Below are positions 4,501 through 37,683 of a DNA stretch of 64,000 nucleotides, one piece after another (positions within the stretch are counted from its first letter, which is position 1; each line of letters starts with the position of its first letter). A program made the position numbers and the translations under genes. Source of the DNA: Escherichia coli. GTDB taxonomy: Bacteria > Pseudomonadota > Gammaproteobacteria > Enterobacterales > Enterobacteriaceae. The notes under the pieces were generated by a model. That model searched no databases and was not told the origin of the DNA. It saw only the letters and a list, made by a program, of their open reading frames with translations. Where the stretch lies: the NCBI RefSeq assembly GCF_041886205.1, contig NZ_CP169029.1; one strand, 5' to 3'.

Positions 4501-4580
4501 ATTCCTCACGGGGGATAACAGGCAGCAGAACGCCGCCGGCAGGCCGGAGACTGCGTCTGTTGCAGATGAACGGTTAAGAA

Positions 4581-4787: not shown

Positions 4788-6412
4788 GAGAATGTTCCTC
4801 CGGATGTTGTTAAACCAGCCGGTGTGGTCATGAAAACAACGCACCACCTTCACCGGCATAACAACCGGGGAGAAACGTAAAAAATAATCGGGAATGTGAC
4901 CGCCAGGAGATAAACGGGGAGGTTACGGTGGCTGAGCCGTACCGGTATGCCGGGTGGTTGTTACGAAACGATGCTTCCGCACGCGCGCGCGATAAAGAAG
5001 GGATGATTTTCGTGAGGAAGAGGGGAAAACTGGCGTTCTGATAATTGCAGAGTTATTTACGGGGCGGTTACGATGGGGCAGACCATGTCCGGTGGGCAGG
5101 CGACAGGTATCACCGATGGGATAAGACTGTCTGATTGGTATTATAAATATAAGAAGTTATCAGAGAGTAACGTAAAGGATTTGCCAGAATAACCTAAGAG
5201 AGTAAATCTCTCCGGTAACAGAGCGCTGTGAAGCATTCTGTATCAGAGTGCAAATACATGAACGCTGATGCGTAAAATCAGCAGTGACACGCCAGCTCCC
5301 CCTATGCCCATTCCTGTATAAGACATGAACTGAGCGTATTAATGCTCCTGCCCTGAAACTGAGCCGGTGAGTGAGGGGCTGAGAAATCCCTCTTGACACA
5401 GCTCTAACCAGAAATACTTCCCCGGTTGTTGCGGTGCGTCCGGATCCCCGATAACGGAACACTAAGGCTGTATTGCGGGACACCAGGTAAGTGGCAGCCC
5501 GTAATACGTCAGGAGACGCGGGAAAAGTGATTTCCCATACGCGTTATAAACTTACCCCTGCGGAGATGGAAGCCTTCAACTCTGCGGTCGATCACCGACT
5601 GGCAGAACTGACAATGAACAAGCTTTACGATCGTGTTCCCGCTTCAGTCTGGAAATATGTCATCTGAGCGTTCGGTAATCACAACTGCATCGCGCCAGGT
5701 GTTATCCGCTTTGTGATTCTTATTGGCTCTTCTCAGGTTATTAAAAGCTGAATATGTTCCTGTTGTCGGGAACTAGGATAATACCGGGAACGTTAAGCGG
5801 TATAGCGACAACAAAGAATTCGAAATCAAAAGGGAATGGTGTACGGAGGTGTAGGCGGTAATGGGCCGATTTTCGGGCATTACCGACCTCTGCTGAGGTT
5901 TTCTCGTATTTATCGGGGAGCTGGTGCGTTACTGTCACTGTCTGGCACAGCAAACGCAGAGGTGGCGGGGCGCTCTGCTCCGCTGACTCCGGCTAATCTC
6001 TCCCCTTTTACCTACTGCAACAGTACAAATACACTGACGCCTGAAATGACAGCCAGAATCAGCACAGGCAGTAACGTCAGTAGACAAAGCAGACGATCGG
6101 TATTTCGGTAATAATCGAAGGGATCTGCTGACACGTAGCCCGGGCAACATTCCGTATTATGAGGGATGGCGTTATCACAATCCCTGCACACCGTTTTGCG
6201 TATCACCATCACGTCCTCCTCACAATCTTATCCGTAACCGGCTTTTTGCATTAAAAAAACAACGCTGAAAATTCAGCCGTCAGTCCGGAGACGACAGTCG
6301 GGTTATCTCAGAGTGCCTGAGATATTGCCTGGTTGGAGATCACTTCAGGGACTCTGCGCATTTTTTACGGCGTGGTTAATCCGTATGAACGAAACCATAC
6401 GGAGATTTAACC

Positions 6413-6982
6413 ATGACCTACAAATACAACCCCTTCTGGCAGCAACGTATTCGTGAGACGGTGCGGCACGCACTGGATGTTCATCCCCGTCTGACGGCAT
6501 TGCGGGTTGATCTGCGTCTCCCGGATGTACCGGCAGCAACGGACGCGGCTGTGATATCCCGCTTCATCAATGCCCTGAAAGCCCGCATCGACGCTTACCA
6601 GAAACGTAAGCATCGGGAAGGTAAACGCGTGCATTCCTCGACCCTGCATTACGCCTGGGCCCGGGAGTTCGGGGAGCTTAAAGGCAAAAAACACTATCAC
6701 CTGCTGCTGCTGGTCAACCGGGATACCTGGTGTCGTGCCGGCGATTACCGCGCTCCGGGGTCACTGGCCGGAATGATTAAACAGGCCTGGTGCAGTGCCC
6801 TGGGGGTGGATGCCGGATGTTATGCCACGCTGGTGCATTTTCCGGTCAGGCCGGCGGTGTGGCTGGAACGCGATGATGAAACCGGCTTTCAGCAGGTGCT
6901 GGAACGTGCTGGCTATCTGGCGAAGGAGCATACCAAAGCTCGCGGCACCGGTGAGCGCAACTTTGGCTGCAGTCGTGGCTGA
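6413..6982 (+). CDS. YagK/YfjJ-type (inovirus Gp2-like) island protein with a His-hydrophobe-His motif
   Basis: 189-aa ORF with an ACGGAG RBS; N-terminus MTYKYNPFWQQRI...HPRLTALRVDLRLP and an HYHLLLL motif. Confidence 0.5.
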   Translation: MTYKYNPFWQQRIRETVRHALDVHPRLTALRVDLRLPDVPAATDAAVISRFINALKARIDAYQKRKHREGKRVHSSTLHYAWAREFGELKGKKHYHLLLLVNRDTWCRAGDYRAPGSLAGMIKQAWCSALGVDAGCYATLVHFPVRPAVWLERDDETGFQQVLERAGYLAKEHTKARGTGERNFGCSRG

Positions 6983-7142
6983 GCCCGACAGACGACTTAT
7001 CTGACCTTAGTGTGATGACGCGTTCACAGCGACCACACTGATTTTCCCTTCTGAGACTGAACTGAAAACCGCTATTCACACCTGACCACGCTGCCCGTAC
7101 CGGGACGGCTGTTGCCTGCGTGTCGTCTGGCGGCTGAGGAAT

Positions 7143-7475
7143 ATGACGATGTACGCAAAATCCTTTCTCGCACTTGATGGCAACGGGCGTCTGACTGGTG
7201 CCCGTACCGCACAGACTGCACCTTACGATCGCTACACTTGCCACCTTTGCGGCAGTACACTCAGATACCATCCGCAATACGACACTGAACTTCCCTGGTT
7301 TGAACACACTGACGAAGGGCTGACTAAGCACGGTCATGAGTGCCCTTATGTCAGACCGGAGTGCAGAGAAATACAACTGATTAAGCGTCTGCAGAAATTC
7401 GTACCGGATGCCTTACCCGTGGTGCGTAAAGCCAGCTGGCACTGCACGAAACAAGGCATTGGATCTTGTAGGTAA
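7143..7475 (+). CDS. GC-rich N-terminal segment with a Cys/His cluster (zinc-ribbon-like); possibly the 5' part of a frameshifted or recombined gene continuing in 7408..7725
   Basis: 110-aa ORF containing YTCHLCGS...HGHECPY; it overlaps the next ORF in another frame for 68 nt. Confidence 0.35.
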   Translation: MTMYAKSFLALDGNGRLTGARTAQTAPYDRYTCHLCGSTLRYHPQYDTELPWFEHTDEGLTKHGHECPYVRPECREIQLIKRLQKFVPDALPVVRKASWHCTKQGIGSCR

Positions 7476-11999: not shown

Positions 12000-13100
12000 C
12001 TATACATCGTGGATTTTTCGCCGGGCATGGGCCCAGCACGCAACTTCTGTCAGTGCACCACCTTCACGTTCTGCACTGAACAACCTGTCGTAACCTGTGA
12101 ACGCATCCGCCTGCAGGATACCCCGGAAGGGGCGGAGGTGTTGCTCCGGGTATTTCCCCTGACGGTTCGGCGAGTACGCGAACCAGACCGCTGGAGGAGA
12201 TGACGAACCCACATTGCGATCATCCCGGACATACGTCCAGATACGCCCTGTTTTCGCCTTTTTCTGACCCGGTGCCAGTACCTTTACCGGTGTGTCATCA
12301 GTGTGAACCTTGCGGGTGTTCATTACATAACGGTACAGGGCATCATTCACCGGTGTCATTAACTGGCAGCACGCGTCAACCCAGTTGGAGAGTAAGGCCC
12401 GGCTCAGTTCGACACCCTGGCGGGCAAAGATTTCACTCTGACGATACAGTGGCAGATGTTCGCAGTATTTTCCCGTTAACACGCGGGCAAGTAATCCGGA
12501 GCCCGCGATACCACGCTCTATCGGGCGGGACGGCGCCGGTGCTTCAACAATACAGTCACATTTTGTACAGGCTTTTTTTACCCGTTCTGTGCGGATCACT
12601 TTCAGGGCACTGCTCACCAGTTCCAGCTGTTCAGCGCTGACTTCCCCCAGATAATCCAGCTCACCGCCACACTCCGGGCAACAGCTTTCTTCTGGCTCCA
12701 GGCGGTGTATTTCACGGGGAAGGTGTGCCGGTAACGGACGACGATGGCGCGACTGTCGCAACTGGCGGGGAACCTGAGGATCGTCTTCCCGCCCACTGTA
12801 ACGATCGCTGTCCTGTTCACGTTGTTTCAGCAGGGCCTCAGCCAGTTCAACTTCACGACGCAGTTTTTCAGAACGGGTACCGAACAGCATCCGGCGCAGT
12901 TTTTCTATCTGAGCCCGCAGATGTTCTATTTCCCGTTCATCTTCTTCGATCTTTTCTTCGGCACGTGTCAGTGCAGAGCGCAGGAAGGCTTCCGTCTCTT
13001 CAACCAGACTCAGTTGCTGGTCTTTCTGACGGAGGGCTTCAGCCTGCTCAGAGAGCAACCTTTCCAGCTCTGCGATGCGAATGAGGTATTTCTGACTCAT
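12000..13100 (-). pseudogene. tnpC: IS66-family TnpC transposase, C-terminally truncated (366 of about 520 aa)
   Basis: MSQKYLIRIAELERLL...CPECGGELDYLGE...[13 protein letters not shown] then premature stop; compare the full-length copies at 14608..16179 and 50332..51903. Confidence 0.8.
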
Positions 13101-13130
13101 GACCGTTTTTATAATGCGGTCAGGAGTTTT

Positions 13131-13481
13131 TTACAACATTGTCAGTGAGTTACGGCGGGATGTTTTTGGCTGACGCCAGTCCAGCTTATCGAGGAGCATT
13201 GCCAGTTGCGAGCGGGTAATGGATACCTTGCCGTCACGTACCGCAGGCCAGATAAACTGGCCTTCCTCCAGGCGTTTGGTGAACAGGCACAGACCATCAG
13301 CATCAGCCCAAAGAATTTTAACGGTGTCACCCCGTCGGCCACGGAAGATAAACAGGTGACCGGAGAAGGGATTATCATTCAGCACATGTTGTACCTGTTC
13401 TCCCAGTCCGTTGAAGGATTTACGCATATCGGTAACGCCGGCAACGAGCCAGATACGGGTACCTGATGGGAGTGAGATCAT
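13131..13481 (-). CDS. tnpB: IS66-family TnpB (Orf2)
   Basis: 116 aa, MISLPSGTRIWLVAGVTDMRKSFNGLGEQV...; start overlaps the tnpA stop. Confidence 0.85.
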   Translation of the reverse strand: MISLPSGTRIWLVAGVTDMRKSFNGLGEQVQHVLNDNPFSGHLFIFRGRRGDTVKILWADADGLCLFTKRLEEGQFIWPAVRDGKVSITRSQLAMLLDKLDWRQPKTSRRNSLTML

Positions 13482-13903
13482 CTTCCCCTCCCGGTCAGTT
13501 CACGGATCAACACCGTGAGCAGCTCTGGCGATGGATTTTCCAGCGTCATGTTACCGTGACGGAATTCCACCTTGCAGGAACTGGCACTGACTCTGGTCTG
13601 AGTGGAAGTGGATAAAGACGGCGCAATGGCCGCCACAGGTTCTTTCTGCTCATCCGGCGTTATTTCTACAGGTAATAATTCAACGCCAGTGTCAGAAGAG
13701 GTCTTTACCGGAAGACGCCGCGAAACACGCCCTTCGTTCTGCCAGAGCCTGAGCCATTTGAAAATAACATTATCATTGACGCCATTTTCACGTGCAATCT
13801 GTGCAACACAAGCTCCAGGTTGTGATGCCAGTTCCACCATACGAAGTTTGAATTCATTCGAATAGTTTTTACGAGGTTCTTTTCGCCAGTCCTGTAATTC
13901 CAT
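13478..13903 (-). CDS. tnpA: IS66-family TnpA (Orf1)
   Basis: 141 aa with HTH region ...ASQPGACVAQIARENGVNDNVIFKWLRLW... Confidence 0.85.
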   Translation of the reverse strand: MELQDWRKEPRKNYSNEFKLRMVELASQPGACVAQIARENGVNDNVIFKWLRLWQNEGRVSRRLPVKTSSDTGVELLPVEITPDEQKEPVAAIAPSLSTSTQTRVSASSCKVEFRHGNMTLENPSPELLTVLIRELTGRGR

Positions 13904-13990
13904 ACTTAGATGTCCGTCTATATCAGATGGGCGTCTAAGTTACCAATTCTCGTCTGATGGCTACATACGGCGGTCAGTTTACGCTTACAC

Positions 13991-14211
13991 AACAATGGCG
14001 CGAGGGAAAGCTGCTATTACCTTCTTCAGAGAGCCCCCAGCTACTTCCTGTGACTCTTGATGCAGTTGCCGAACAGCCAGAATCGCTCGCAGAGGACCCG
14101 GAAACCCTCAGTATCAGTTGTGAGGTAACGTTCCGGCACGGGACGCTCCGCTTCAATGGCAATGTCAGCGAAAAGCTCCTGACTCTGCTGATACAGGAAC
14201 TGAAGCGATGA
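13991..14211 (+). pseudogene. tnpA: IS66-family TnpA, C-terminal fragment only
   Basis: Matches the C-terminal 73 aa of ORF 25092..25493 (...[54 protein letters not shown]). Confidence 0.8.
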
Positions 14212-14558
14212 TCCCGTTACCTTCCGGGACCAAAATTTGGCTGGTTGCCGGTATCACCGATATGAGAAATGGCTTCAACGGCCTGGCTGCGAAAGTACAA
14301 ACGGCGCTGAAAGACGATCCCATGTCCGGCCATGTTTTCATTTTCCGGGGCCGCAGCGGCAGTCAGGTTAAACTGCTGTGGTCCACCGGTGACGGACTGT
14401 GCCTCCTGACCAAACGGCTGGAGCGTGGGCGCTTCGCCTGGCCGTCAGCCCGTGATGGCAAAGTGTTCCTTACGCAGGCGCAGCAACTGGCGATGCTGCT
14501 GGAAGGTATCGACTGGCGACAGCCTAAGCGGCTGCTGACCTCCCTGACCATGCTGTAA
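14208..14558 (+). CDS. tnpB: IS66-family TnpB
   Basis: 116 aa [31 protein letters not shown]...; ATGA overlap with tnpA. Confidence 0.85.
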
Positions 14559-14607: not shown

Positions 14608-16179
14608 ATGAACGACATTTCTTCTGACGACATCTTCCTGCTGAAACAGCGCCTGGCCGAACAGGAAGCGCTGATCCACGCCCTGCAGGAAAAGCTGAGC
14701 AACCGGGAGCGCGAAATAGACCATCTGCAGGCGCAGTTGGATAAACTCCGCCGGATGAACTTCGGCAGTCGTTCCGAAAAAGTCTCCCGCCGTATCGCAC
14801 AAATGGAAGCCGATCTGAACCGGCTTCAGAAAGAGAGCGATACGCTGACTGGTAGGGTGTATGACCCGGCAGTACAGCGTCCGTTGCGTCAGACCCGCAC
14901 CCGTAAGCCGTTCCCTGAATCACTACCCTGTGACGAAAAGCGACTGTTGCCTGCGGCGCCGTGCTGCCCGAACTGCGGCGGTTCACTGAGCTATCTGGGC
15001 GAGGATACCGCCAAACAGCTGGAGTTGATGCGTAGCGCCTTCCGGGTTATCCGGACGGTACGGGAAAAACATGCCTGTACTCAGTGCGATGCCATCGTGC
15101 AGGCACCTGCACCTTCGCGGCCCATCGAGCGGGGTATCGCCGGACCGGGGCTGCTGGCCCGCGTGCTGACCTCGAAGTATGCAGAGCACACCCCGCTGTA
15201 TCGCCAGTCAGAAATATACGGCCGGCAAGGTGTGGAGCTGAGCCGTTCACTGTTGTCGGGCTGGGTGGATGCATGCTGCCGGCTGCTGTCTCCGCTGGAA
15301 GAGGCGCTTCATGGCTATGTCATGACTGACGGCAAACTCCATGCCGATGATACCCCGGTCCAGGTACTGCTGCCGGGTAATAAGAAGACGAAGACCGGGC
15401 GGTTGTGGGCGTATAAGAAGACGAAGACCGGGCGGTTGTGGGCGTATGTTCGTGATGACCGCAATGCCGGGTCAGCGTTGGCACCTGCAGTGTGGTTCGC
15501 TTACAGCCCGGACAGAAAAGGCATCCATCCGCAGACTCATCTTGCTTGCTTCAGCGGTGTGCTGCAAGCGGATGCGTACGCCGGGTTCAACGAGCTGTAT
15601 CGCAATGGTGGGATAACGGAAGCTGCCTGCTGGGCTCATGCCCGCCGAAAGATCCACGATGTGCACGTCCGCATCCCGTCAGCACTGACGGAAGAAGCCC
15701 TGGAGCAGATCGGTCAGTTGTACGCCATAGAGGCGGATATAAGGGGAATGCCGGCAGAGCAGCGGCTTGCTGAACGTCAGCGAAAAACGAAACCGCTGTT
15801 GAAATCCCTGGAAAGCTGGTTGCGTGAAAAGATGAAGACCCTGTCGCGACACTCAGAGTTGGCGAAGGCGTTCGCGTACGCACTTAACCAGTGGCCGGCA
15901 CTGACGTACTATGCGAACGATGGCTGGGTGGAAATCGACAACAACATCGCTGAAAATGCCCTGCGGGCGGTCAGTCTGGGTCGTAAAAACTTCCTGTTCT
16001 TCGGCTCTGACCATGGTGGTGAGCGGGGAGCGCTACTGTACAGCCTGATCGGGACGTGCAAACTGAATGACGTGGATCCAGAAAGCTACCTTCGCCATGT
16101 GCTTGGCGTCATAGCAGACTGGCCGGTCAACCGGGTCAGCGAACTGCTTCCGTGGCGCATAGCACTGCCAGCTGAATAA
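14608..16179 (+). CDS. tnpC: IS66-family TnpC transposase (523 aa) carrying an in-frame 33-bp tandem duplication
   Basis: Full-length ORF with the CPNCGGSL zinc-ribbon-like motif; [11 protein letters not shown] is repeated twice (15382..15447). Confidence 0.85.
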
Positions 16180-16351
16180 CACATCCCCGTCAATACGGCC
16201 CTCGCTGTACGCTTACGAGTAAGATTTCTTAAAAAATATAACAATAACAAAAAATTGAAATATATCACAAAAAAATCAATATACCCCTTATAAGGCCTGG
16301 ATGACTGTACAGCATGTATATGCCAGAAAACCGGTTTATGTGAATCAGGGT

Positions 16352-17086
16352 TTACCCGTCACCAGTTGTGTCCTTAATACCATACTGTTTTAACCACTGA
16401 CAGGGAGTGACTGAGTAGTATTTTCTGAAACTTAAAATAAAATACGACAGACTGCTATATCCGCACTCTCTAGCGACAATAAAAATGTTAGCATTCCCGC
16501 ACTTCATCAGAGTTATTGCCTTTTTCATACGTACTTCTGTGATTATCCGGCTGAATCCTGCGCCTTCACTGTGCAGTTTTCTTTTAAGCTGACTGGCACT
16601 TATACATAACGCTGATGCAACATCTGACAGATACCATTTCTTTGCCGGCTCTGCGGCAACAATAGCTTCAACACGTAACGAGTAGTTATTCAGCCCACCG
16701 GACAATACAGGCAGCAACTGGTTTTTATCATTAAGATAATCCAGCAGCACAAATAATACTGACTCATAAAGGTTAGTATTTTTCTGTTGTTCCACAAGTG
16801 ACATCAGCGAGTTCAGAAAGGTACCATACGCTTTCTTTCTGAAAAAAGAATTTTTCCTGTCAGTGATGCATAACGCATCGGCATCCCTCAGTCTGATATA
16901 CAGATAGTCGCTGATGATATGACAGGGTATATCAATAAACCTCACACATCCTTCACAGGCATCCGTAATATACTGAATGTCATTTCTTTTAAGAAAGAGA
17001 ATTTCATTCCGGGCAAAATCAAGCTCTTCATTGTAAAATGAAGCACAGAATGGCCTCACTATAATGGCAAAACAATACGGAAACAT
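16352..17086 (-). CDS. AraC-family transcriptional regulator (Rns/CfaD-like, AT-rich gene)
   Basis: 244-aa ORF with a C-terminal AraC-type HTH (...YLSDVASALCISASQLKRKLHSEGAGFSRIITEVRMKKAITLM...GYSSLSYFILSFRKYYSVTPCQW...). Confidence 0.7.
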   Translation of the reverse strand: MFPYCFAIIVRPFCASFYNEELDFARNEILFLKRNDIQYITDACEGCVRFIDIPCHIISDYLYIRLRDADALCITDRKNSFFRKKAYGTFLNSLMSLVEQQKNTNLYESVLFVLLDYLNDKNQLLPVLSGGLNNYSLRVEAIVAAEPAKKWYLSDVASALCISASQLKRKLHSEGAGFSRIITEVRMKKAITLMKCGNANIFIVARECGYSSLSYFILSFRKYYSVTPCQWLKQYGIKDTTGDG

Positions 17087-17241
17087 ACAGTACAGGTGTT
17101 ATTTAGAAATATCCGGTATTTTTCTTATTATAGCTGACAGACTTACTTCCTGACATTATATTAAGAAGTTCGATTTTATTATTAAAGTAACCGGACAAAA
17201 TACAGTCCGGTCACCGTGGTTATACGCGCATATAAATGTTA

Positions 17242-17871
17242 TCAGTCACCTTCATTCAGGCTGACAGTATCCGTAATCACACCATCTTCTGCACCTTTCA
17301 GTGCAAGATTGGCTTCGTAGTATTTCCCTTCGCTCATTAATTTTTGCGCACTGTTAACCTTTTTCTGCGTCTGTTTTAATGGCATCAGCCACTGCGTTTC
17401 TGAAATATCAATTCCGGCGAGATGCAGTACGTCAATTGCTCCTTTTTTGTCACCTTTATCCAGTTTTTTATTGGCCTCATCAATAGCTTTCTGTTTTTCC
17501 GGGGTGACAGTAAAGTCTTCAGACAACATTAAGCTGCTGTTAATAATAATGTAGACATCGCCTTCCTGTGGTGTTTTTTTATCCTTGCGGACAACTGTTT
17601 CCCATGTTTTATCATCAGATTTAAGCAAATCTTCAGCCCGGTTTATCAGCTTATCTGCTGCTCCTGTGTCACCACTGAATAAGGCAAGACGTGCATACTG
17701 CATGTCATCCATAATTTCCATACCACGCTGTTCTGCCTTCAGACTCCTTTCTGATAAAACTGTCTGAGCCTCATTTTTTGTGGATGAAGTGTTTTCTGAA
17801 GTTGCTGAGGCCATTGCGACAGCAGAGGTCAGGGACAGAGCGATTGCTACAGCATTAAAGATATGTTTCAT
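17242..17871 (-). CDS. yfdX: YfdX-family periplasmic protein
   Basis: 209 aa with signal peptide MKHIFNAVAIALSLTSAVAMA and a conserved C-terminal ...SEGKYYEANLALKGAEDGVI... region. Confidence 0.7.
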   Translation of the reverse strand: MKHIFNAVAIALSLTSAVAMASATSENTSSTKNEAQTVLSERSLKAEQRGMEIMDDMQYARLALFSGDTGAADKLINRAEDLLKSDDKTWETVVRKDKKTPQEGDVYIIINSSLMLSEDFTVTPEKQKAIDEANKKLDKGDKKGAIDVLHLAGIDISETQWLMPLKQTQKKVNSAQKLMSEGKYYEANLALKGAEDGVITDTVSLNEGD

Positions 17872-18490
17872 ATTTTTTACTCCGACATCAGGCAGAAAGA
17901 ATCATACCTGATAATAAACATAATATGATTTTCCCCCTGACGATTAGTCATATACTCAGGAAGCCGGACAAGGATGTCCCCCTCCCGGACATTTATATTC
18001 CCCTATCCGGCATGCATATTTTATGTTCTGCAACTGATATAAGAAATCTGACCACTTACCCCCACACAAAAAATAAATACCGAACCGGTAATATCACAAT
18101 ACATCATTATAAAATTATATTTATGTTACCAGTAATTTTTATGCCATCACAAGCCCAAAAAATCATTAATAACCCACCCCGCTCCATGCAAATAAAAGAA
18201 AATACATTTCACATGAAATACCATGATATATATATTGCCCGGAGTGATGGTGTTTTTATGAAGCAATTTAAATAATACAGATAACTGTAATTTATCATTC
18301 AGACGAAGAGATTTGATTTACACGGTAAGAGCATATGGCACATTACAACAGGGGTCTCTGTGAATATATACAGAAAACATATCTCATAAAACCCGGGAAA
18401 TGCCCCATGAATACAGGACAGTGAAAACAGGCATGATAATCAGGAAAGCCATGCCTGATACAGAAAAAGTTACCTGCGGGGATAATGCAT

Positions 18491-18577
18491 GCGTATTTTC
18501 ATGGAAGGAGATCACTCAATAACTTCCATCGAGAGCGGGTAATAACTCACCGATCTCCTTCACGGTAATAAGCAATG
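18491..18577. repeat. copy 2 (most complete) of the unclassified palindromic repeat
   Basis: GCGTATTTTCATGGAAGGAGATCACTCAATAACTTCCATCGAGAGCGGGTAATAACTCACCGATCTCCTTCACGGTAATAAGCA; the arms AAGGAGATC and GATCTCCTT can pair. Confidence 0.6.
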
Positions 18578-18622
18578 CACAACCAGGCACTTACTGGCCG
18601 GTTATCCATGTCTATATTATAT

Positions 18623-18850
18623 TTACATCACGTCAGTTTTCATAAAGGCTGTGAACAGCCAGTAAATCAGGCCACTGAATACCAGCCACAGCACAACTAG
18701 GGCTGCAACCCTCACAGGGATATCACACTCTTCCGGCACTTTTTCCACAGCCATACTGCACAGATGGACTGTCATAACAGAAATCATCACAACAGCAAGG
18801 ATATGAATGAAAAGAAAAACGACTTTCATTTTCCGGAAATGCATATACAA
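18623..18850 (-). CDS. small hydrophobic (membrane) protein, hypothetical
   Basis: 75-aa ORF with two predicted transmembrane stretches; no family recognised. Confidence 0.25.
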   Translation of the reverse strand: MYMHFRKMKVVFLFIHILAVVMISVMTVHLCSMAVEKVPEECDIPVRVAALVVLWLVFSGLIYWLFTAFMKTDVM

Positions 18851-19162
18851 ACCCTGACTCAGCCTGTCCTGTCTTTCCTGATCCTCTGTAATCTTAACTT
18901 ATCCATGCGCTGACGAAGTCTGCCCGGAACACGCCCGCTCTTTCTTGAAATATGAGCACAGATAAAATCTTCAAGCAGAAAATGCATGTCCTGCATTACC
19001 ACATCTTCTTTTTTGTCTTTCACTGAAAAATGCCTGACAAAATCGCTCATGAAAATGTTTCTGAAACGCTGTTATCCAGCTTCAGAAACCGGTACTGCCT
19101 TCACCAACACAAATCATTTTGTTGTCACTGTCTGACCTGTTCTCCCCTCCCGGAACTCGCTG

Positions 19163-20197
19163 TTACTGATAGGAAAATGTAAATGTTGATATTCCGTTAA
19201 CCGTACCCGGATTAATTCCCTCACCAGTATTCACATACTTTACATACAACCGGACTGAGGGTGACGTTTCCGTTCCTGTTGATAACTGCCACTGGTTTTC
19301 ATTTCCCTTTACCGGCGAATCAGGTCCAAACTTCAGGGGCGTACTGTCAGTGTTTTTGTATATTCTCAGCCCGACTCCGGTTGCAGTCGATGCCCCCGTC
19401 AGTGTGAGTATATCGCTTCTGTTGGACGGTGTGGTCGCATCAGTCAGTGTTGCCCATACTGTTACTCCGGCATCACACTGTAATTTCAGTGATGTTGTCC
19501 CGGCGACAACTTCATCACCGGATGATGGCAGTTGTCCGGCAGAAATTGCAGCCAGGCTGACATTGACTGCGGAAGGTGTCAGTAATCTGCACGATGTTAC
19601 TGTGTCATTCAGCGTAAATGGATTCAGGCTGAAATTCACTGTGGTCTGAACACTGCCTGCAGATGAACCGTTATAGGGCCTCATTCTGATACTCCCGATG
19701 CTGGTCTTCTGTACACTGTATCGCGCAGAGGAATTTCTTTTTAAAATTACAGGTGTTACACGAACAGACAGTCCCTGGGTTGATGCAGTATTAGCTCCGA
19801 CACACCATCCGGAAAAGACATTTTCCCATGAGTTTCCGCTCATCGCGGTACCCCTGGAATAATTCGTGTCCCCCATCCATATAAGGAGCCCCACCTCCTC
19901 TGTCAGCCCATAAATACTCTGCCCGTCAAGACTGCCAACCACGGGTAAATCCACTTTCCCGTCCAGCCCGACACAAAATCCCTTAGAAATACGCCAGACA
20001 TTTGCATTCTGATATCCAATGTTGTTACCGGTATTATAGACAAATGGCAGGTTATCCATTGCATGAGTTCTGGAATAAGAGCCTGGAGATGGTCCCACAT
20101 CGTTTTCCGTACTGCCAATAAATGAAACTGCCGCCTGACTGATATTGCAGCAAACCAGAATGAATACAGCCAGAAAGACCTTATAAAAATTTGTCAT
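19163..20197 (-). CDS. fimbrial tip adhesin, F17-G-like two-domain adhesin (344 aa)
   Basis: Signal peptide, then an N-terminal lectin-like domain and a C-terminal pilin domain; last gene of a major pilin/chaperone/usher/adhesin operon. Confidence 0.7.
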
Positions 20198-20198
20198 A

Positions 20199-22736
20199 TT
20201 ATTGCCTCATGCATACTACATGATGGTTTTCCGGAACAGCATTTCCCCTGGCATTTTCTCCGGACGCACTATAGTGAATGACACAACTGTCATTCTGCCC
20301 GCTTCCCCAGACTATCCTGAGCATCCCTTTTTCAGCATCCAGGTCACGTACAAATAACCGGCCTCCCTGAGCAATGTAGCCTGCAGATTTCCCGTCTGCT
20401 GTTAATGCTTCCGCGGCCATCGGCGGCGGCGTTCCGTCCGGCATCTTCACATCAAACAACATGGCTTTCCCCGTTTTTGTTGTGAAGGTCACCATGGTGG
20501 TACTGTTGGCCCGGGGAATAATTTCCCGCTCTGTTGCAGACAGTTCCACATCCGCAGCCAGCGCTGTCGGGTCGATACTGATATAATTCTTTTCGTAAGG
20601 TGTGACATACGGAACAATGCCGTTACCCCAGGGGTCCAGCCGGTTACCCGGCGCATTATTAATCACCGCCCCACCGGCACCATCAGCATGAATAACGGTA
20701 AATGTGTCACCAAGGTCATTACTGGCCGTCACACCAAACGGATGCGCCACTATTGCCCCGGATATACCGGCAGATATCTGACGGTTATGGCGACTGTCAT
20801 TCCCTGCCGTGGCCTGCAGGGTGGCCACCGGTGAACGATAACTGCCATTCACCGCATACCCTGTCGGTCCGTTTTCCTGGGTGTTCAGGGACACACCATA
20901 TGACAACTGATTGTCATCCCCGCTGACACCACTGATACTGCTCTGAATGCTGTTACTGTTTTTATCGCTGACATTCACTGTCGTGGACAGCAACGTCCTT
21001 CCCGTATCTGAAAGTGGCAGGGAAAAACTGAAAAAGAACCGGTTATCATGATGATAATCACCACTCCGTCGGGTCTGGGAAAAGCCAATCTGGTAACTCA
21101 TTTTTTTCCAGACGTTGTTATAACCGGCCTGGTACTCATTGAATGTCCCTGTATGTCCCCAGTAATGATAAGTGGCTCCGGTCAGATACAGGTTTCCCCA
21201 TCCCTCACCAAGACTCTGGTTCACAGTCAGTTGCAACTGATTCCTTGGCCGGTAACCAGTTGCACTCCTGACCGATGAATCATTAATCACATCACGATTC
21301 CTGGTCAGGATGGCATCCCGAAGACTCCAGAAGTCACGGGATGAATAACGGTAAGCCGCCAGCGTCACATTTGTACTGGTTTCCGGTATTCGTGCACTGT
21401 AACCGGCATGCAGGCTGTAGCCGCGATGTGTCGTGTCAGAACCCGGGAAAGTCGTTCTGGCCAGCGTAATATCCGTGGCAACAGCCCCCAGTGGTGTATT
21501 GAATGCCACACCACCCAGCCCTGACAGATAATGAGGTGCGGTACTCATCCCCGTATTCAGGGTGATATCATTTGTCAGCCCGTACTGCAGGGTCCCCTGG
21601 AATACGGTATCGCTGAATGTCCTGTTACCGTAACGATAACGCCCGGCTGCCACCTGCCAGCGACTGAACCCCGGGCGAACCAGTTGTGCAACCGAAGCAA
21701 ACGGCACGATAAAACTCCTGGTCTGTCCGTCTGACTCTGTCACAGTGACTGTCAGGTCACCACCATATCCACTGGGATAAAGGTCACTGATGGAGAAAGG
21801 CCCTGCCGGCACGGTAGTTTCATAAATAATGTTACCGTTCTGCCGGACAGTAACCCTGGCGTTACTTCCGGCCATCCCCCGAACCACAGGGGCATAACCA
21901 CGCAACGAACCCGGCAGCATCCGGTCATCAGAAGCCAGTCTTATTCCCCTGAGGCTGTTACTGTCCATAAGCTCACCTGTGGTGGTGAAATCCCCCAGTG
22001 TCAGTTGCGCACGCAACATGGCTATGTCGTGCTGAAGGTTCGTTTCAATACTCCGGTAACCTTCTGCATGACCGTCACTCCAGCTTTCTGTCCCCCGGTG
22101 ACGAAATGCCCAGCCTCCTGCGTTAAAGCCGGCACGAAGACCAAGATAACTCTGATTATTTTCCATATCGGGCGTCCGGTAACGCCAGTGATTCACGTCA
22201 TAACTGACAAAGGCAGCCGGCACCCCCGTCTGCCACTGAGAAGGTGATATGTATCCCCGTGGACGGGAAACCAGCATGGCCTGCGGAATTTCAACATTCA
22301 GCCGCAGCAGTGACAGGTCAAAACGGATTTTGGCATCAGGTACAACTGCAGAAAATGGCATGCAACGACCATTTCCGGTATCCGGTTCACGGGCAACGGC
22401 CTCGGGTGACACATCCAGAATGGATAACAGTTCCGGCGTCACACACAGAACACTCTCCTCCTGTGAAGAGGACATATCACGGAATGACAATTCCGCATTT
22501 CCTTTCCATTCACCGTTCAGATAAATGTCTGAATAATAATTCCCTGAGGGAACAGGATTCCCGTGCGTGAAACGACGGACATCAATCACACTGCTCCCTG
22601 GCGTGCGGCTCAGAAAACTCGGGTCAAATTCTGCATCCTCTGCCGCCCACAAAGGCGCAGACAGCATATAAAGTCCCGGCAGACAACATAAATAAATGAC
22701 ACGATATTTCAGACCGGATAAAGAATAATGACTCAC
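20199..22736 (-). CDS. fimbrial outer-membrane usher (845 aa)
   Basis: Size and position between the chaperone and adhesin genes; typical usher length. Confidence 0.85.
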
Positions 22737-22749
22737 TTACGGGCCCTTA

Positions 22750-23472
22750 TTATTTCAGAACGGATTCACCTTTCTGGTAACCACCATTATCATTCACCAC
22801 CGTCCATTCCACTTTTCCTGACGGAGAAACCTTCTGCTTCAGTCTGAAAGTGACAGATGAAAACGGTGCGGCCATCCCCCCCTGAGTACTGCTGACTTTC
22901 TGAGCTCCCTGTCCGACACTGACAGTACTGAAGGTAATAAAATAAGGCGTGGGATTACTGGCCTGAAGGGTATCACCGCCTGTAAGCTGCCATGTCACTT
23001 TCTTATATGCATCATCAGGAGAAAAAGGCAGACCATCAGGACGGAAAAAAAACTTAATCCGGGTGCGTACGGCAAACTGAAGGTAATTATATCCCTGTGC
23101 TTTTTCAGATTTTCCGGCAAAAGAAGGTTTGGCCGGAATATCAAGAACATTCAGCCAGAACAGTGATTCCCTGTCTGCCGGAAGTTTTTCTCCCGTATAC
23201 ATAATTCGCATTGTCTGTCCGGAAAGCGGCTCCATCCGGAAAACAGGAGGCGTAATAATAAACGGCACCCTGACAGAGTCAGGAGGGGAAGACGGGTCCC
23301 CTGTATCAAGCCATGCCTGTATCAGGGATGGCGTACTGTCTCCGTTATTCAGCCGGACATTAATACTTTTTTGTTCTGCAGGATAAATAACCCTGGTCCC
23401 CATAATAACCACACTGCCATATGAGGGCAGAGACAAAAGAACGGTAAAAATGAACAGCAGAATATGTTTCAT
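22750..23472 (-). CDS. periplasmic fimbrial chaperone (PapD-like)
   Basis: Start MKHILLFIFTVLLSLPSYG at 23472 with a GGAG RBS; about 240 aa, immediately upstream of the usher. Confidence 0.85.
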   Translation of the reverse strand: MKHILLFIFTVLLSLPSYGSVVIMGTRVIYPAEQKSINVRLNNGDSTPSLIQAWLDTGDPSSPPDSVRVPFIITPPVFRMEPLSGQTMRIMYTGEKLPADRESLFWLNVLDIPAKPSFAGKSEKAQGYNYLQFAVRTRIKFFFRPDGLPFSPDDAYKKVTWQLTGGDTLQASNPTPYFITFSTVSVGQGAQKVSSTQGGMAAPFSSVTFRLKQKVSPSGKVEWTVVNDNGGYQKGESVLK

Positions 23473-23539
23473 ACAGGCTCCGTAAACACGGGGCAAAATG
23501 CCCCGTGAACACTTAAGAAGGCAGGTATTAAGATAAAAA

Positions 23540-24088
23540 TTACTGATAAGCGATGGTGTAATTCACAGTGGCAGAAACGTTGCCGGCGGTGGCCTGACCT
23601 GTTGCATAGTACTGTGCGTTATAACGTAATGTCATTGCGTCATTATTAATAACAACAGGTGTTACTCCCTGATTAGCAGAATCATTACCAAGTAGTATCT
23701 GTGTGGTACCATCAGCATTCAGAAGCTGAATCTGGACTTTTGTTGCGTTACCAGAGCCACTACTTGAAATATTAAGGTTATGGCTATCATAATCAGTGGT
23801 CGCATTAGGCTCAAAATAAGCCTTCACACTTTGAGCTCCTGTAGCGGCAGCAGTATTACACCCACTCAGTGAAATTGTGAAAGGAGTAAGGCCTGCTACC
23901 TTCCCGGTTGAATCTAATGATTTTGTGGAGACAGTTGGTAGTGTAACTGTCAAGGGATCGGTTCCTGTAGTAACAGAACAAGTTTGATCAACAACTTTTC
24001 CATTAAAAGTAATTGTACCGTCATAAGCAAGTGTAGCAGAAGATGACGCAGCCGCCAGTATTCCAAGGATAAATTGAATTTTCCGCAT
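23540..24088 (-). CDS. major fimbrial subunit, F17-A-like pilin (182 aa)
   Basis: MRKIQFILGILAAASSSATLAYDGTITFNGKVVDQTCSV...NYTIAYQ resembles F17 major pilins (resemblance judged from memory, no alignment run). Confidence 0.8.
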   Translation of the reverse strand: MRKIQFILGILAAASSSATLAYDGTITFNGKVVDQTCSVTTGTDPLTVTLPTVSTKSLDSTGKVAGLTPFTISLSGCNTAAATGAQSVKAYFEPNATTDYDSHNLNISSSGSGNATKVQIQLLNADGTTQILLGNDSANQGVTPVVINNDAMTLRYNAQYYATGQATAGNVSATVNYTIAYQ

Positions 24089-24227
24089 AGAATCCTCAGT
24101 GAAACTGATAAGAATATATCATGAAAACAGCAGCAATTAAGAATTTAACTTAATATATTAAGAATAAATTTAATTGCCTATATACAAGATTATCCATAGT
24201 TAAAAAAACTCTCAAAACGTTAAAAAC

Positions 24228-24294
24228 GATCGATATTTCAATTTTGATAGATAAAAGCTATCAATAAACAAATTAACGATCGGTTGTAACGATC
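24228..24294. promoter_or_regulatory. cluster of three GATC (Dam) sites in ACGATCG contexts in the AT-rich region upstream of the fimbrial operon; candidate methylation-dependent switch
   Basis: GATC at 24228, 24278 and 24291, each within ACGATCG[AG]T. Confidence 0.3.
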
Positions 24295-25091
24295 GATAAA
24301 ATATATGAATCAACGTTGCCAAATAAAATAACACATCTGCAAAATAAAACTTTTTCATATTCAATAAATTAATTTCTATTTGTAACTATTACTTTTGATC
24401 ATGTATACGTTTTTAATCATAAATAATGATAATTAGCTTAGTTGATTATATAAAGGCTGTTTAGCCTGTGTTTAAGTTTTCATTTTTGTGAATTAAATCA
24501 CAAACAAGGATTTTCTGCGAATATAAATATATATAAAGTAAGATATATTATGTGCGTGTTTTATGCAGTTTATTTTTATTATCCCTATTTTCTGCAAAAC
24601 AACATATTAATCACTCTATCCATTTCTGACTCAGTTCCTTTTCTGTTCCAGGAAACCATTCATCATATTGCAGGAGAACACTCTCTGCGGGGAAATGGGA
24701 TGCAGAAACTTACAGACTACTGGCAACTTTAAATCTGTTTTTTCCGTTCAAAACGTGGGGGGATATAAGACCATACAGTGTCCAGCCAGGAAAAGTAACA
24801 ATAAAGCGCTACAGCATGGCTTCTTCCCCGGAAGAGTAGAGCGTAAAGAAGCTGTACATCACACCAATAAAGGAAACTGCCTGCACTTTTTCGCATCAGC
24901 CGTATTCTGAACAATCACCAGTGCCGCCCTCAACAGAATATACAGTATGATGATTTGGCTACCATGGCCAGGTTAACCAGTACGTTACGATGACTGTGCT
25001 GAGACATACTTATGGTCATCGTAAGCGTACAGCCTGAACCGTCTGGTCAGAATCTGACGAATTAGACAAAGTGGTGTCCACCAAATAAGTA

Positions 25092-25493
25092 GTGGGAACC
25101 AAAGTATCAGATATGCAGAAAAATGTGACTCCCGCCAGGCGAAAAGGCTGCCCTAATTATCCTCCCGAATTTAAACAGCAGCTCGTTGCTGCCTCCTGTG
25201 ACCCCGGGATATCCATCTCAAAACTTGCTCTTGAAAATGGCATTAACGCCAATCTGTTGTTCAAATGGCGACAACAATGGCGCGAGGGAAAGCTGCTATT
25301 ACCTTCTTCAGAGAGCCCCCAGCTACTTCCTGTGACTCTTGATGCAGTTGCCGAACAGCCAGAATCGCTCGCAGAGGACCCGGAAACCCTCAGTATCAGT
25401 TGTGAGGTAACGTTCCGGCACGGGACGCTCCGCTTCAATGGCAATGTCAGCGAAAAGCTCCTGACTCTGCTGATACAGGAACTGAAGCGATGA
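25092..25493 (+). CDS. tnpA: IS66-family TnpA
   Basis: 133-aa ORF, HTH region ...ISISKLALENGINANLLFKWRQQW... Confidence 0.85.
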   Translation: MGTKVSDMQKNVTPARRKGCPNYPPEFKQQLVAASCDPGISISKLALENGINANLLFKWRQQWREGKLLLPSSESPQLLPVTLDAVAEQPESLAEDPETLSISCEVTFRHGTLRFNGNVSEKLLTLLIQELKR

Positions 25494-25856: not shown

Positions 25857-26443
25857 ATGAAAAATATCCCGCTTCCTGATAATATCGACCAGCTGAAAGC
25901 CCTGTTGCGTCAGCAGCAGGTTGCTGTGGAACAGCTAAATGTTACCATGAAAAAGCAGCAGGCCCGGCTGCGCCAGTACGCCGGACAGGTTGCCGACTAC
26001 GAACAGGAAATCGAACGGCTGAAGGCACAGCTTGATAAGTTGATAAGCTGCGGCGGATGCTGTTCGGGCAGAGTTCAGAGAAAAGCCGCAATAAACTGGA
26101 AAATAAAATCCGCCAGGCAGAGAAGCGGCTGGCTGAGCTGGAAAACCGTCTTGCAGCGGCAAAACGCTGTCTGCAGGACGATGAGCCCACTGTCAGTACG
26201 GTTGAGCAGGCAGAGCCCCCGGTGGCGGTCGCCCCACAGGACCGGCCTGCACGCCGCTCCCGTCGTCAGAAACTGCCGGCAGACCTGCCACGTGAAACCC
26301 GGCGCATCACCCCGACAGTGACTGTCTGCCCGAAATGCGGCGGCGACCTGAAGGTGATGAGTGAAACCGTCTCAGAGCAACTGGAGATAATCCGCAGCGC
26401 CTTTAAGGTCATCGAAACGGTGCGCCCGAAGCTGGCCTGCAGC
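25857..26443 (+). pseudogene. tnpC: IS66-family TnpC, N-terminal part, frameshifted by an 8-bp duplication and truncated
   Basis: MKNIPLPDNIDQLKALL...QLDKL then frame shifts at the duplicated TTGATAAG (26033..26048); continues in the 26057 frame (MLFGQSSEKSRNKL...CPKCGGDL...) and ends at the junction with cdiA. Confidence 0.75.
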
Positions 26444-29400
26444 GGTGTGCTTGTTGGTTCCGCCCTGAATACACAGTCACAGACCCTGACCAACAGTGGT
26501 CTGTTGCAGGGGGAGGCCTCACTCACCGTTAACACACAGAGGCTTGATAATCAGCAGAACGGCACGCTGTACAGTGCTGCAGACCTGACGCTGGATATAC
26601 CGGACATCCGCAACAGCGGGCTTATCACCGGTGATAATGGTTTAACGTTAAACACTGCCTCCCTCAGCAATCCGGGAAAAATCATCGCTGACACGCTGAA
26701 CGTCAGGGCGACCACGCTGGATGGTGATGGTCTGTTGCAGGGCGCCGGTGCACTGGCGCTTGCAGGCGACACCCTCTCACAGGGCCGTAACGGACGCTGG
26801 CTGACGGCGGGCGACCTCTCCCTCCGGGGTAAAACACTGCATACCGCAGGGACCATGCAGGGACAGAATCTCACCGTGCAGGCGGACAACTGGGCGAACA
26901 GTGGCTCCGTGCTGGCAACCGGTAACCTTACTGCTTCGGCAACCGGTCAGTTGACCAGTACCGGCGATATCATGAGCCAGGGTGACACCACGCTGAACGC
27001 AGCCACCACGGACAACCGGGGCAGTCTGCTTTCGGCCGGCACGCTCTCTCTTGATGGAAATTCACTGGATAACAGCGGCACTGTCCAGGGTAACCATGTC
27101 ACGCTTCACCACAGAAGCACTGACAACAGCGGTACGGTCACGGGGCTGAGCGGTCTGACCCTGCACAGCGCGGACGGGCTTACCAACAGTGGCGCGCTGC
27201 TGAGCCAGAACTCGCTGGCGCTGAGCGCAGGAGATGTGACCAACAGCGGCCGGATTCAGGGGCAGAACATCACTCTGGATGCCAGCAGCCTGACCAGCAG
27301 CGGTGCTGTTCAGAGTGCGCTGGATTTGGCTCTGACCCTGAGTGGCGATGTTATTGCTGCCACCGGCAGCAAAATTACCGCCATGGGCGATGCCCGCCTG
27401 ACCGGGAAAGTGCTGGGTAACCAGGGATTAATCAGCGCGAAGACGCTGGAAGTGAATGGTGATTCGCTCAGCAACAGTGGCGAAATCAGTGGTGTTAACA
27501 GCCTGAACGTGACACTCAGTGGTAATCTGCAACAGCACGGTAAAATGCTGACAGGCGGTGCATTAAACGTCAACGCCAGAGACATCAGCAATAGTGGGCA
27601 GCTTCAGGGGGCGGATAACCGAATCACCGCCAGTTCGCTGACCAACTCAGGTCGTGTGCAGGGCGACAGCGGGCTGACTCTTACATTGCTGAATGCCCTG
27701 ACCAACCAGACCAGCGGTGTGCTTCTCAGCCAGAACGTATCAGCGCTTTCCGCACCCGTGCTGACCAATGACGGCACCATTCAGGGCAACGGTAAAACCA
27801 CGCTCAGCGCGGCAACGCAGGCCCACAACAGTGGCAAGATTCTTTCCGGCGGTGAGCTGACGTTCACCACGCCGGACTACAGTGGCAGTGGCTGGCTACA
27901 GGCCACTGACCTGCTGCTGAACGTGGCGAAGCTTGCCGGTAATGGCACTGTGATGGCGGCGAATCAGGCAACGCTCACAGGTAACAGTCTGACCAACCGT
28001 GGCCTGTTCCAGGCCGCACAACTGAACGTCAACACGCAGACCATCACCAACAGCGGCACGCTGCTGGGTAATCAGGGCCTGACAATAAAAGGGAACAGCC
28101 TGAACAACGCCGGCGGGAAGGTATTCAGCGGCGGTGATATGCTTGCTGATATGGTCTCGCTCAGCGGCGCGGGCCAGCTGGTTGCACTCGGTAACCTGAC
28201 GCTGAAGCTCACCCGTGGTTTGACAGCACAGGGCGTTATCGCCGCGAATAAACAACTCTCCGTCAGCAGCCAGGGTGATATTACCAATGGCGCCACATTG
28301 CAGGGCAACGGTATCACGCTGAATGCGGCGGGCAGGCTGACCAACAATGGCCAGTTGACCGCCGGCAACGGCACCACGGCACTGAGCGGCAGCGGGATTG
28401 CGATGAATGCCAGCGGCAGCCTGCAGGCAGGCGGGGACGTCAGTCTGACCAGCCGGGGGGATATCACTCTCGACGGTTTTACCGGCACGACGGGTAGTCT
28501 GATGTTAACGGCCGCCGGGTCAGTCATTAACGCCGCACTGTTGTATGCGGGCAATAACCTCTCGCTGTTTGCCAGCACCATCCGGAACCATCACGGCGAT
28601 ATGCTGGCGGGTGACAGCCTGGTGATGCAGAAAGATGTCAGTGGTGCCGCGAATGCTGAAGTGATTAATACCTCCGGGAATATCGAAACCACCCGCGGTG
28701 ATATCACCATCAGAACCGGACATTTACTGAATCAGCGGGAGGGTATAAATGAGACAAAATCATACATTCCGGTTGAGAATGTCGCAGTACCTGATGGTGC
28801 AAATTCTGTTTCAGTCAGAGTGGGCGATTTAGGTGAAGATGGATGGGGATATTATGTGAAGTCCTGGAGCGGTACTGCCGGTGGTGGTTTTGAGGCATGG
28901 GCCGTTCCGACTGAAAAGGGAGCCACCCGGAAATTTCTGACTGGCACAACACGCGTCGATGTTGGTGCAACAGGGGGGGATGCCAGAATTTCGGCCGGGA
29001 ATAATCTGCTGATTGACGCGGACAAACTGGATAATACGGGAAGTCATCTTCTTGCCAGCGAGTTTGTCAGCCTGTCGGGTTCACAACTGAATAATCAGTC
29101 CTTCTTTGGCTATACACAGGATGAATACAATGTGTATCGCTATTACGGCAAACTGGCCATGATCCCCAACGACGGGCATCTGCAGTATGGAGATGCTTCT
29201 GCCGATGATCGCGTTACCTTTACTCTCTCCGGAGCTCCGGAATATGTCACCAGAGACACCGGTCAGGCTCTGAGAGCCGTGATTCAGGCAGGCAAAAATG
29301 TCACTGCCGTTTTTTCCAGTGATATCAGTAATACATCCACAACCTCAAATGCAGGACGGATCACAAATACCCTTGCGGCACCTGAAATTAACACGCCGGC

Positions 29401-30892: not shown

Positions 30893-30902
30893 GGAACTAT
30901 CC

Positions 30903-36779: not shown

Positions 36780-36784
36780 TTGTT

Positions 36785-37680: not shown

Positions 37681-37683
37681 TAG

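Follow-up and report, generated by a model that had tools for sequence, protein, structure and literature searches.

A conserved yfdX-araC gene pair near the F17 fimbrial operon in an IS66-built island of cattle-type Escherichia coli

The araC and yfdX genes

The DNA analyzed here (the window) is a stretch of 64,000 nucleotides (nt) of Escherichia coli contig NZ_CP169029.1 (assembly GCF_041886205.1) and represents a chromosomal island; its positions 16200-18700 match the bovine strain ZYB39 with 100% identity. Our subject is a pair of neighboring genes near the F17 fimbrial operon, a regulator gene of the AraC/XylS family (araC) and a yfdX paralogue, in a region that is a mosaic built by insertion sequences (IS) of the IS66 family in a cattle-type E. 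coli island. The initial annotation, made from the sequence alone, placed an AraC gene and a YfdX gene on the same strand, in a block of low GC content that lies downstream of fimbrial genes, and the open reading frames (ORFs), the Pfam matches and the GC content confirm this. Its coordinates begin precisely at the araC stop and end at the yfdX start, and the GC content is 0.399 in araC, 0.422 in yfdX and 0.329 in the gap between them, compared to 0.489 for the whole window. Both araC and yfdX are real, intact genes under purifying selection. The pair and its upstream region are laid out as follows (aa, amino acids).

16352-17086, minus strand: AraC/XylS-family regulator gene, 244 aa, with an N-terminal beta-rich regulatory domain and a C-terminal double helix-turn-helix (HTH) DNA-binding domain
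17087-17241, minus strand: yfdX-araC intergenic region, 155 nt
17242-17871, minus strand: yfdX paralogue, 209 aa (Pfam YfdX)
17872-18448, minus strand: yfdX upstream region, which moves with the yfdX-araC pair (alignment; P0002-type matches)

The regulator belongs to the AraC/XylS family, with matches to HTH_18 of 53.7 bits (E 2.6e-14, cut-off 33.6) and to HTH_AraC of 46.2 bits (E 4.4e-12, cut-off 26.6). Eight araC homologues with 68-100% amino acid identity each have exactly 244 codons, align without gaps, and show a ratio of nonsynonymous to synonymous divergence (dN/dS) of 0.12-0.19, while the synonymous divergence (dS) across the araC and yfdX comparisons reaches about 1 or more. The RefSeq model of the regulator in the identical strain (NZ_CP098234.1, KFZ69_RS21750), made by the Prokaryotic Genome Annotation Pipeline (PGAP), has 197 aa and a GTG start at 16945, which leaves out codons 1-47. 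Since these codons are under selection (dN/dS 0.07-0.47) and the alignment to the YdeO profile begins at residue 9, we prefer the 244-aa ORF from the ATG at 17086. The shorter PGAP model was rejected because the 47 extra codons are gap-free in all eight homologues with a dN/dS below 0.5, which suggests that the RefSeq start codon is probably wrong.

Comparison with the proteins of E. coli K-12 by BLASTP gave GadW (36% identity, 95 bits), YdeO (34%, 89 bits), AppY (30%, 86 bits), GadX (34%, 86 bits) and EnvY (38%, 70 bits), where the matches to GadW, YdeO, GadX and AppY cover the C-terminal 140-155 aa or so. Rns was matched at 28% identity and 68 bits in its C-terminal part only (Rns residues 116-259), and by phmmer at 59 bits over regulator residues 88-232 only. 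All equivalog cut-offs of NCBIfam were missed, with 84.5 versus 348 bits for YdeO (residues 9-242), 92.3 versus 500 for GadX and 100.8 versus 354 for HilD; by these scores the regulator is related to YdeO, GadX and HilD and is the orthologue of none of them. Its N-terminus, MFPYCFAIIV, is similar to the M..VCSVI(F/L)I start of YdeO, GadW and AppY.

The AlphaFold (AF2) model of the regulator, with a predicted local distance difference test (pLDDT) score of 87.5, combines a beta-rich domain at the N-terminus with a DNA-binding domain of seven helices. A Foldseek search of the PDB with the whole chain returned CsvR (9gfp) and Rns (6xiu) first (E 3e-11 to 1e-9) and then ToxT; these matches extend over about 245 columns at E 3e-11 to 1e-7, with 20% identity and a template modeling (TM) score of about 0.42. 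With the DNA-binding domain as the query, GadX came first (39% identity, TM 0.94). The root-mean-square deviation of about 15 A across the full-length alignment probably reflects a differing orientation of the domains, and the fold match to Rns and ToxT is thus best read per domain. As modeled, the regulator has the Rns/ToxT type of fold, a beta-rich N-terminal ligand domain and a double HTH in a single chain, which in this type has about 250-275 aa, without close full-length sequence kinship to Rns, CfaD or CsvR. The term 'Rns/CfaD-like' in the initial annotation is therefore apt for the architecture, since Foldseek ranks CsvR, Rns and ToxT first (E 3e-11), but not for sequence kinship, since Rns is matched at 28% in its C-terminal half only and BLASTP is slightly closer to GadW, YdeO, GadX and AppY at 30-36%. 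Rns and ToxT bind fatty acids in a pocket that involves H20 and R75 in Rns and K31 and K230 in ToxT; the N-terminal domain of the regulator is too diverged from theirs for reliable alignment at the residue level by the tools applied here.

The regulator thus has two sets of relatives. Like Rns, CfaD, CsvR and ToxT, which include its best full-length structural matches, it is encoded by a low-GC gene near a chaperone-usher fimbrial operon; unlike Rns, CfaD and CsvR, it is separable from that operon. Like YdeO, GadW, GadX and AppY, it is of similar size (242-274 aa in that group), has a two-domain layout and an AT-rich gene, and shares a hydrophobic N-terminus with YdeO; in contrast to them, its N-terminal domain can barely be aligned and its gene is not core but lies on mobile DNA. 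Over the 5426 complete E. coli genomes in which occurrence was counted, the family is found in 37 (0.7%). A word-index search of 5.8 billion proteins found 12 clusters of the regulator family, every one from E. coli, and an exhaustive HMMER search of 1.84 billion representatives found nothing outside the family at E < 1e-30. The family is therefore a tiny clade confined to E. coli.

The second gene encodes a member of the YfdX family (PF10938), with 135.2 bits against a gathering threshold of 26.6 (E 2.2e-39) over residues 53-203 of 209, and it matches the YfdX structure 3dza at E 1e-49, as well as 6uxt and 6a02. It is 51% identical to K-12 YfdX and scores 231.5 bits against the 256 of the corresponding equivalog (NCBIfam PRK10316), which makes it, by these scores, a paralogue of K-12 YfdX. 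Compared to YfdX of K. pneumoniae (3dza), K-12 (6uxt) and S. Typhi (STY3178, 6a02), the protein is 43-51% identical over the full-length domain, likewise has a signal peptide and shares many invariant residues of the helical core; it differs in belonging to a mobile E. coli paralogue clade (67-69% identity to the paralogues of strain C5) and in being encoded beside an AraC gene and not beside evgAS, frc-oxc or hdeDB. The putative Sec-type signal peptide, MKHIFNAVAIALSLTSAVAMA with cleavage before SA, was read by eye and has a basic n-region, a hydrophobic core and an AxA site, which points to a periplasmic location. The gene is preceded by a GGAG ribosome-binding site, and its dN/dS is 0.12 against a 97% identical orthologue and 0.06-0.09 against the 67-69% identical paralogues. 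The description of YfdX as a protein of unknown function needs correction, since YfdX of Klebsiella is a periplasmic acid-stress chaperone (PMC6394985) and Salmonella YfdX undergoes a pH-dependent switch between dimer and tetramer and affects beta-lactam susceptibility and virulence (PMC6339873).

On C5 plasmid A (NZ_CP010123.1, 6992-8876), there is a second YfdX paralogue that is mobile (67% identity) and lies beside an AraC gene. That AraC gene is frameshifted, in divergent orientation to the yfdX paralogue, 41% identical to K-12 YdeO and different from the AraC gene of the window.

These relationships raise the question of whether the regulator is a horizontally acquired analogue of YdeO, GadW and GadX. 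It would feed into the core acid-resistance network (gadE, hdeAB, gadBC and yfdX-type genes) and would form, with YfdX, an accessory module for acid survival in the gut of ruminants or calves. Its sequence is matched best by this group (with the YdeO profile aligned over residues 9-242), the N-termini are alike, and the AraC gene beside the second YfdX paralogue is itself YdeO-like. In K-12, ydeO is within the EvgA regulon. The ancestral partner of the regulator is an acid-stress chaperone in Klebsiella (PMC6394985), and its K-12 relative yfdX is under EvgA as well (PMC6339873), which ties the two families together by theme. Nevertheless, 30-36% identity over the DNA-binding half is uninformative about operator specificity, the equivalog cut-offs are missed by wide margins, and araC persists while most lineages have lost yfdX, and we consider this explanation unlikely.

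Several candidate expression signals lie around the two genes. An 11-bp stem-loop with a weak U-tract follows the yfdX stop at 17186-17215 (-20 kcal/mol, z -2.9), and a promoter scan found a sigma-70-like candidate (ATGTCA-18-TATAAT) at 17156-17127. TTAATAT and the 16 nt preceding the araC ATG are kept in all seven lineages compared. In the 120 nt upstream of yfdX, the divergence between lineages is 0.11-0.16, which is 2-3 times lower than the dS of araC (0.28-0.31) and suggests constraint; beyond this proximal part of about 120 nt, the divergence is near neutral.

These data also bear on whether the pair is non-functional cargo, decaying in an island ridden with insertion sequences. The surroundings are largely IS66, IS2 and IS200 debris, the ibrAB-perC genes that once continued the locus (see below) were removed by IS66, the araC start lacks a clear Shine-Dalgarno sequence, and araC is broken in three related genomes. 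In contrast, both ORFs are intact in the window, dN/dS has stayed low even where divergence is deep (araC 0.12-0.19, yfdX 0.06-0.12), and the promoter-proximal regions are conserved, so that decaying cargo is a very improbable explanation.

Block ancestry, IS66 boundaries and separability from F17

In every lineage, yfdX or its remains lie directly upstream of araC, as found by tblastn, blastn and the seven-lineage alignment of the araC upstream region. The gene is intact in the window and on plasmid mip270_22, multiply frameshifted in the P0002 type, reduced to a 41% relic in 2014C-3075 and to its 3' half in the P0006 type, and on pVir plasmids just its last 40 nt or so remain upstream of araC. 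Directly downstream of araC, every lineage has ibrA, which encodes a protein like phosphoadenosine phosphosulfate (PAPS) reductase, or a relic of ibrA. The least degraded relative, CFS3273 (NZ_CP026932.2, 954322-967983), has the complete series speF-potE-IS1-second AraC-perC-ibrB-ibrA-araC-yfdX-IS66-spacer-F17, in which the second AraC-like gene encodes 211 aa. Since yfdX upstream and ibrA downstream accompany araC in all lineages, the ancestral unit is yfdX-araC-ibrA-ibrB-perC and not F17-araC. This islet is dense in regulators and seems not to have been described as a unit.

The downstream part of the islet corresponds to the IbrAB-PerC island of Shiga toxin-producing E. coli (STEC) and other E. 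coli, as ibrA-ibrB-perC directly follows araC in CFS3273, whereas the window has lost this part to IS66. In STEC, ibrB and perC are co-located regulators that are induced on epithelial adherence (PMC7649339). Homologues of ibrAB occur in about 1970 of the 5426 genomes; in two examples that were inspected (O157:H7 and Nissle 1917), yfdX-araC was not found beside them.

On the other side of the pair lies the fimbrial operon. The further features from IS66 to the far side of F17 are as follows.

14608-16216, plus strand: IS66-family element (tnpC and right end), which abuts the araC 3' flank and truncates the ancestral block
16217-16351, minus strand: remnant of the araC-ibrA intergenic region, with IS66 standing in for the ancestral ibrA-ibrB-perC continuation
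18449-19162, minus strand: spacer that moves with F17, with two small ORFs, retained in F17-only loci
19163-24088, minus strand: F17 operon f17A-f17D-f17C-f17G
19163-20197, minus strand: f17G (F17-AG lectin domain, E 1e-117; Pfam Fim-adh_lectin, 390 bits)
20199-22736, minus strand: usher gene f17C (ORF, Pfam, RefSeq)
22750-23496, minus strand: chaperone gene f17D (ORF, Pfam, RefSeq)
23540-24088, minus strand: f17A (FimA/Fimbrial domains, Pfam)
24089-24811, minus strand: f17A upstream region, GC 0.238 across 24089-24600
24812-25037, upstream of f17A: potE pseudogene fragment (coordinates transferred from the ZYB39 annotation)

The operon is a four-gene F17 chaperone-usher cluster with an F17-G lectin adhesin, and RefSeq names f17a and f17g in the identical strain. 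Published accounts describe F17 as a four-gene cluster on pheV islands or on pVir68 and mention no regulator (PMC4267768, PMC7371111). The pair is near this operon, as initially annotated, but does not directly abut f17G: a 1.3-kb spacer with two small ORFs and terminator-like hairpins separates f17G from yfdX. Given these hairpins, and since F17 and the pair are each found without the other, F17, yfdX and araC do not appear to form a single operon. The two spacer ORFs, both on the minus strand, encode a basic protein of 63 aa (18859-19050) and a hydrophobic, membrane-like protein of 75 aa (18623-18850); neither has a Pfam or NCBIfam match, and both accompany chromosomal F17 loci, including those that lack yfdX-araC. 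An Rfam scan for RNA elements between f17G and araC gave no match at E <= 0.1.

The boundaries of the mosaic were located by comparison of the lineages. In the window, IS66 has replaced all of the ancestral block past 16216, where the IS66 end lies, and 16217-16339 matches the araC-ibrA spacer of mip270_22 at 82%. The match ends in all lineages at 16341, which is 11 nt beyond the stop codon of araC. In P0002-type loci, 16341-18448 is matched at 85% before an IS66-like end takes over, F17-only loci keep the sequence from 18298 onward, and the F17 segment of pVir corresponds to 18998-25024 at 97.5%. The 150 nt at 18298-18448 are therefore common to P0002-type loci with yfdX-araC only and to loci with F17 only, which suggests that a contiguous F17-spacer-yfdX-araC arrangement was ancestral to both truncated forms, and thus that the linkage to F17 may be old. 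In all of the inspected genomes, almost all breakpoints of the mosaic of F17 and yfdX-araC are flanked by IS66-family elements, and it is these elements that make the cuts at the F17/yfdX-araC boundaries. Insertion of an F17 cassette into a yfdX-araC locus was also considered and was rejected, since the P0002 match to window 25078-25273 is the end of another IS66-family element.

A potE fragment is found near f17A and also near F17b on pVir, and the opposite end of the block carries an intact speF-potE in CFS3273. Together these hint at assembly of the F17-yfdX-araC-ibrAB segment at a potE locus or its excision from one.

The pair and F17 are separable in both directions. F17 is present in 36 of the genomes, of which 11 have no member of the AraC family, while 12 genomes have the family without F17. 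Nearly half of the F17 loci (17/36; 5 on plasmids and 12 chromosomal) lack an adjacent pair, and an IS66 copy takes its place in the two of these loci that were examined. In two further F17 loci (AHB6 and MMC-J-0085), yfdX is kept and araC is cut by IS66 at the position corresponding to 16632, and in CFS3273 a 1-nt insertion in araC shifts the N-terminal frame and F17 is still present. Conversely, mip270_22, a plasmid from a dairy farm, has the tandem pair flanked on both sides by an IS66 element and lacks F17, with YfdX 97% and AraC 92% identical to those of the window. On pVir-type plasmids (e.g., NZ_CP132064.1), a 68% identical AraC paralogue lies between cnf2 and cdtABC, which encode cytotoxic necrotizing factor 2 (CNF2) and cytolethal distending toxin III (CDT-III), and on some of these plasmids F17b is about 11 kb away from it. 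The remaining AraC paralogues have other plasmid or chromosomal contexts.

Candidate targets of the regulator

The initial annotation suggested that the regulator may be the activator of the neighboring fimbrial operon. Activators of the Rns/CfaD type bind and activate the promoter of a linked pilus operon and autoregulate, and Rns, CfaD and CsvR are functionally interchangeable. A regulator of this type would bind the AT-rich f17A promoter and relieve silencing by H-NS, with yfdX as a passenger or a co-regulated gene. The modeled Rns/CsvR/ToxT-type fold is consistent with this, as is the location of araC on the same strand at no more than 2.1 kb from f17G in all 17 complete genomes with the window allele. 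Moreover, a rare AraC family and a rare fimbrial operon are found together in 25 genomes, in two AraC clades (chromosomal and pVir), the low GC content upstream of f17A is typical of promoters that need an anti-silencer, and the 150 nt shared by both truncated forms allow for an old contiguity. In contrast, many F17 loci have no adjacent araC and some genomes with F17 have no family member at all, F17 is retained beside truncated or frameshifted araC, and the family occurs in genomes without F17. The conserved neighbors of araC are yfdX and ibrA and not fimbrial genes, and the upstream regions of f17A, yfdX and araC share no ungapped 14-mer or 18-mer on either strand above dinucleotide shuffles, an outcome that is in itself uninformative. 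The identity to Rns is just 28% and limited to the C-terminal part, and F17 has been described as a cluster of four genes (PMC4267768). A literature search found no dedicated F17 regulator and no link of F17 or pVir to AraC or YfdX. To our knowledge, F17 is not a pilus type of the Rns regulon. Since F17 persists without the regulator, the regulator is not a required, dedicated activator of F17, and a role as its Rns-type activator appears doubtful. F17 is still a candidate target because the co-occurrence is strong, though confounded, and on these sequence comparisons a link between the regulator and F17 is possible.

We lean, with some reserve, toward a different explanation, in which AraC is an independent, yfdX-linked regulator that acts in trans. 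The pair would be the surviving core of the old mobile block yfdX, araC, ibrA, ibrB and perC, which IS66-family elements appear to have shuffled among chromosomal islands and virulence plasmids, mainly of bovine E. coli. YfdX would be a secreted periplasmic protein, most probably a chaperone for acid or envelope stress, as are its relatives in Klebsiella and Salmonella. The AraC protein is likely a functional transcription activator with the Rns/ToxT fold and with YdeO, GadW, GadX and AppY nearest by sequence. Transcription of araC may start at a promoter of its own in the 155-nt gap, past the stem-loop that ends yfdX, and the protein would most likely activate AT-rich promoters in trans or counter their silencing by H-NS. 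The neighboring yfdX promoter is its most probable ancestral target in cis, and the location beside F17 would be an outcome of how the island was assembled.

Several observations weigh against an independent, yfdX-linked regulator. The yfdX-araC block at >= 99.2% identity is found in 17 chromosomes, and 17/17 of these copies adjoin F17, so that the regulator does lie next to F17 for the window allele in complete genomes. About 1.2 kb separate F17 from the pair, except in CFS3273 and CFS3292, where the distance is 3.8-3.9 kb; for CFS3273, an IS66 insertion was confirmed. The 25 genomes shared with F17 make up two-thirds of the 37 with the AraC family (the genes are adjacent in 17, share a plasmid in 3 and lie in trans in 3, and araC is truncated in 2), and this co-occurrence is above chance, but it is confounded by shared islands, plasmids and hosts. 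In addition, no recognizable Shine-Dalgarno sequence was read before the araC ATG. The tie to yfdX is also loose in places, as yfdX has decayed in 4/6 lineages while araC is intact, which suggests that the selective value of the regulator does not lie in yfdX alone and that other targets in trans are needed. Furthermore, yfdX has no AraC neighbor in Buttiauxella, Yersinia, Klebsiella and K-12, and pairing is not general: a scan of GTDB species genomes with a YfdX alignment gave 10 loci only (Buttiauxella, Yersinia, Klebsiella and E. coli), none of which has an AraC homologue within 6 kb, and a general YfdX-AraC pairing across genera was rejected on this result (0/10).

The pVir paralogue between cnf2 and cdtABC is possibly a toxin or fimbria regulator of necrotoxigenic E. 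coli. A broader proposal is that AraC of the mobile yfdX-araC(-ibrAB-perC) islet is a master activator of acquired virulence genes in bovine septicemic and necrotoxigenic E. coli, with F17 on chromosomal islands and F17b, CNF2 and CDT-III on pVir as its targets, analogous to Rns, PerA and AggR in human pathotypes; we regard this as quite improbable.

F17 fimbriae are a main colonization factor of strains that cause diarrhea and septicemia in calves and lambs, and Rns and ToxT have been targeted with fatty-acid mimics. If this rare AraC family, which is associated with cattle, did control F17, or CNF2 and CDT-III near the paralogue on plasmids, then it would act as a virulence switch and deserve attention as a target. 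On present evidence, the regulator is uncharacterized and belongs to known families, in an island of a type that is also known, and the analysis mainly documents an unannotated conserved block, a RefSeq start that was probably miscalled, and the role of IS66 in both building and eroding F17 islands. Its value is chiefly for annotation, with a modest relevance to veterinary pathogenesis if the regulator controls F17, CNF2 or CDT-III.

Other features of the island

The IS66-family element beside araC carries a TnpC ORF (14608-16179, plus strand) with a perfect in-frame tandem duplication of 11 aa at 15382-15447. Next to it, window 12000-14558 holds back-to-back IS66-family remnants, which on the minus strand comprise a tnpC with an internal stop (12000-13100), a tnpB (13131-13481) and a tnpA (13478-13903), and on the plus strand a further tnpB (14208-14558).

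On the plus strand at 26057-39173, several ORFs together represent a large, split gene with haemagglutinin repeats (CdiA-like), and the one at 26057-29596 also scores for N-terminal domains of IS66 TnpC. PT-VENN pre-toxin motifs are found at 30970-35406 and in the downstream ORF at 37944-39173, and the whole resembles a contact-dependent inhibition locus that is frameshifted and has an orphan toxin module. At the start of the window, 1-7400 encodes a DUF3987 protein (2017-3570) and a protein of the YagK/YfjJ family (6413-6982) and has the appearance of an integrative-island backbone of the P4 type.

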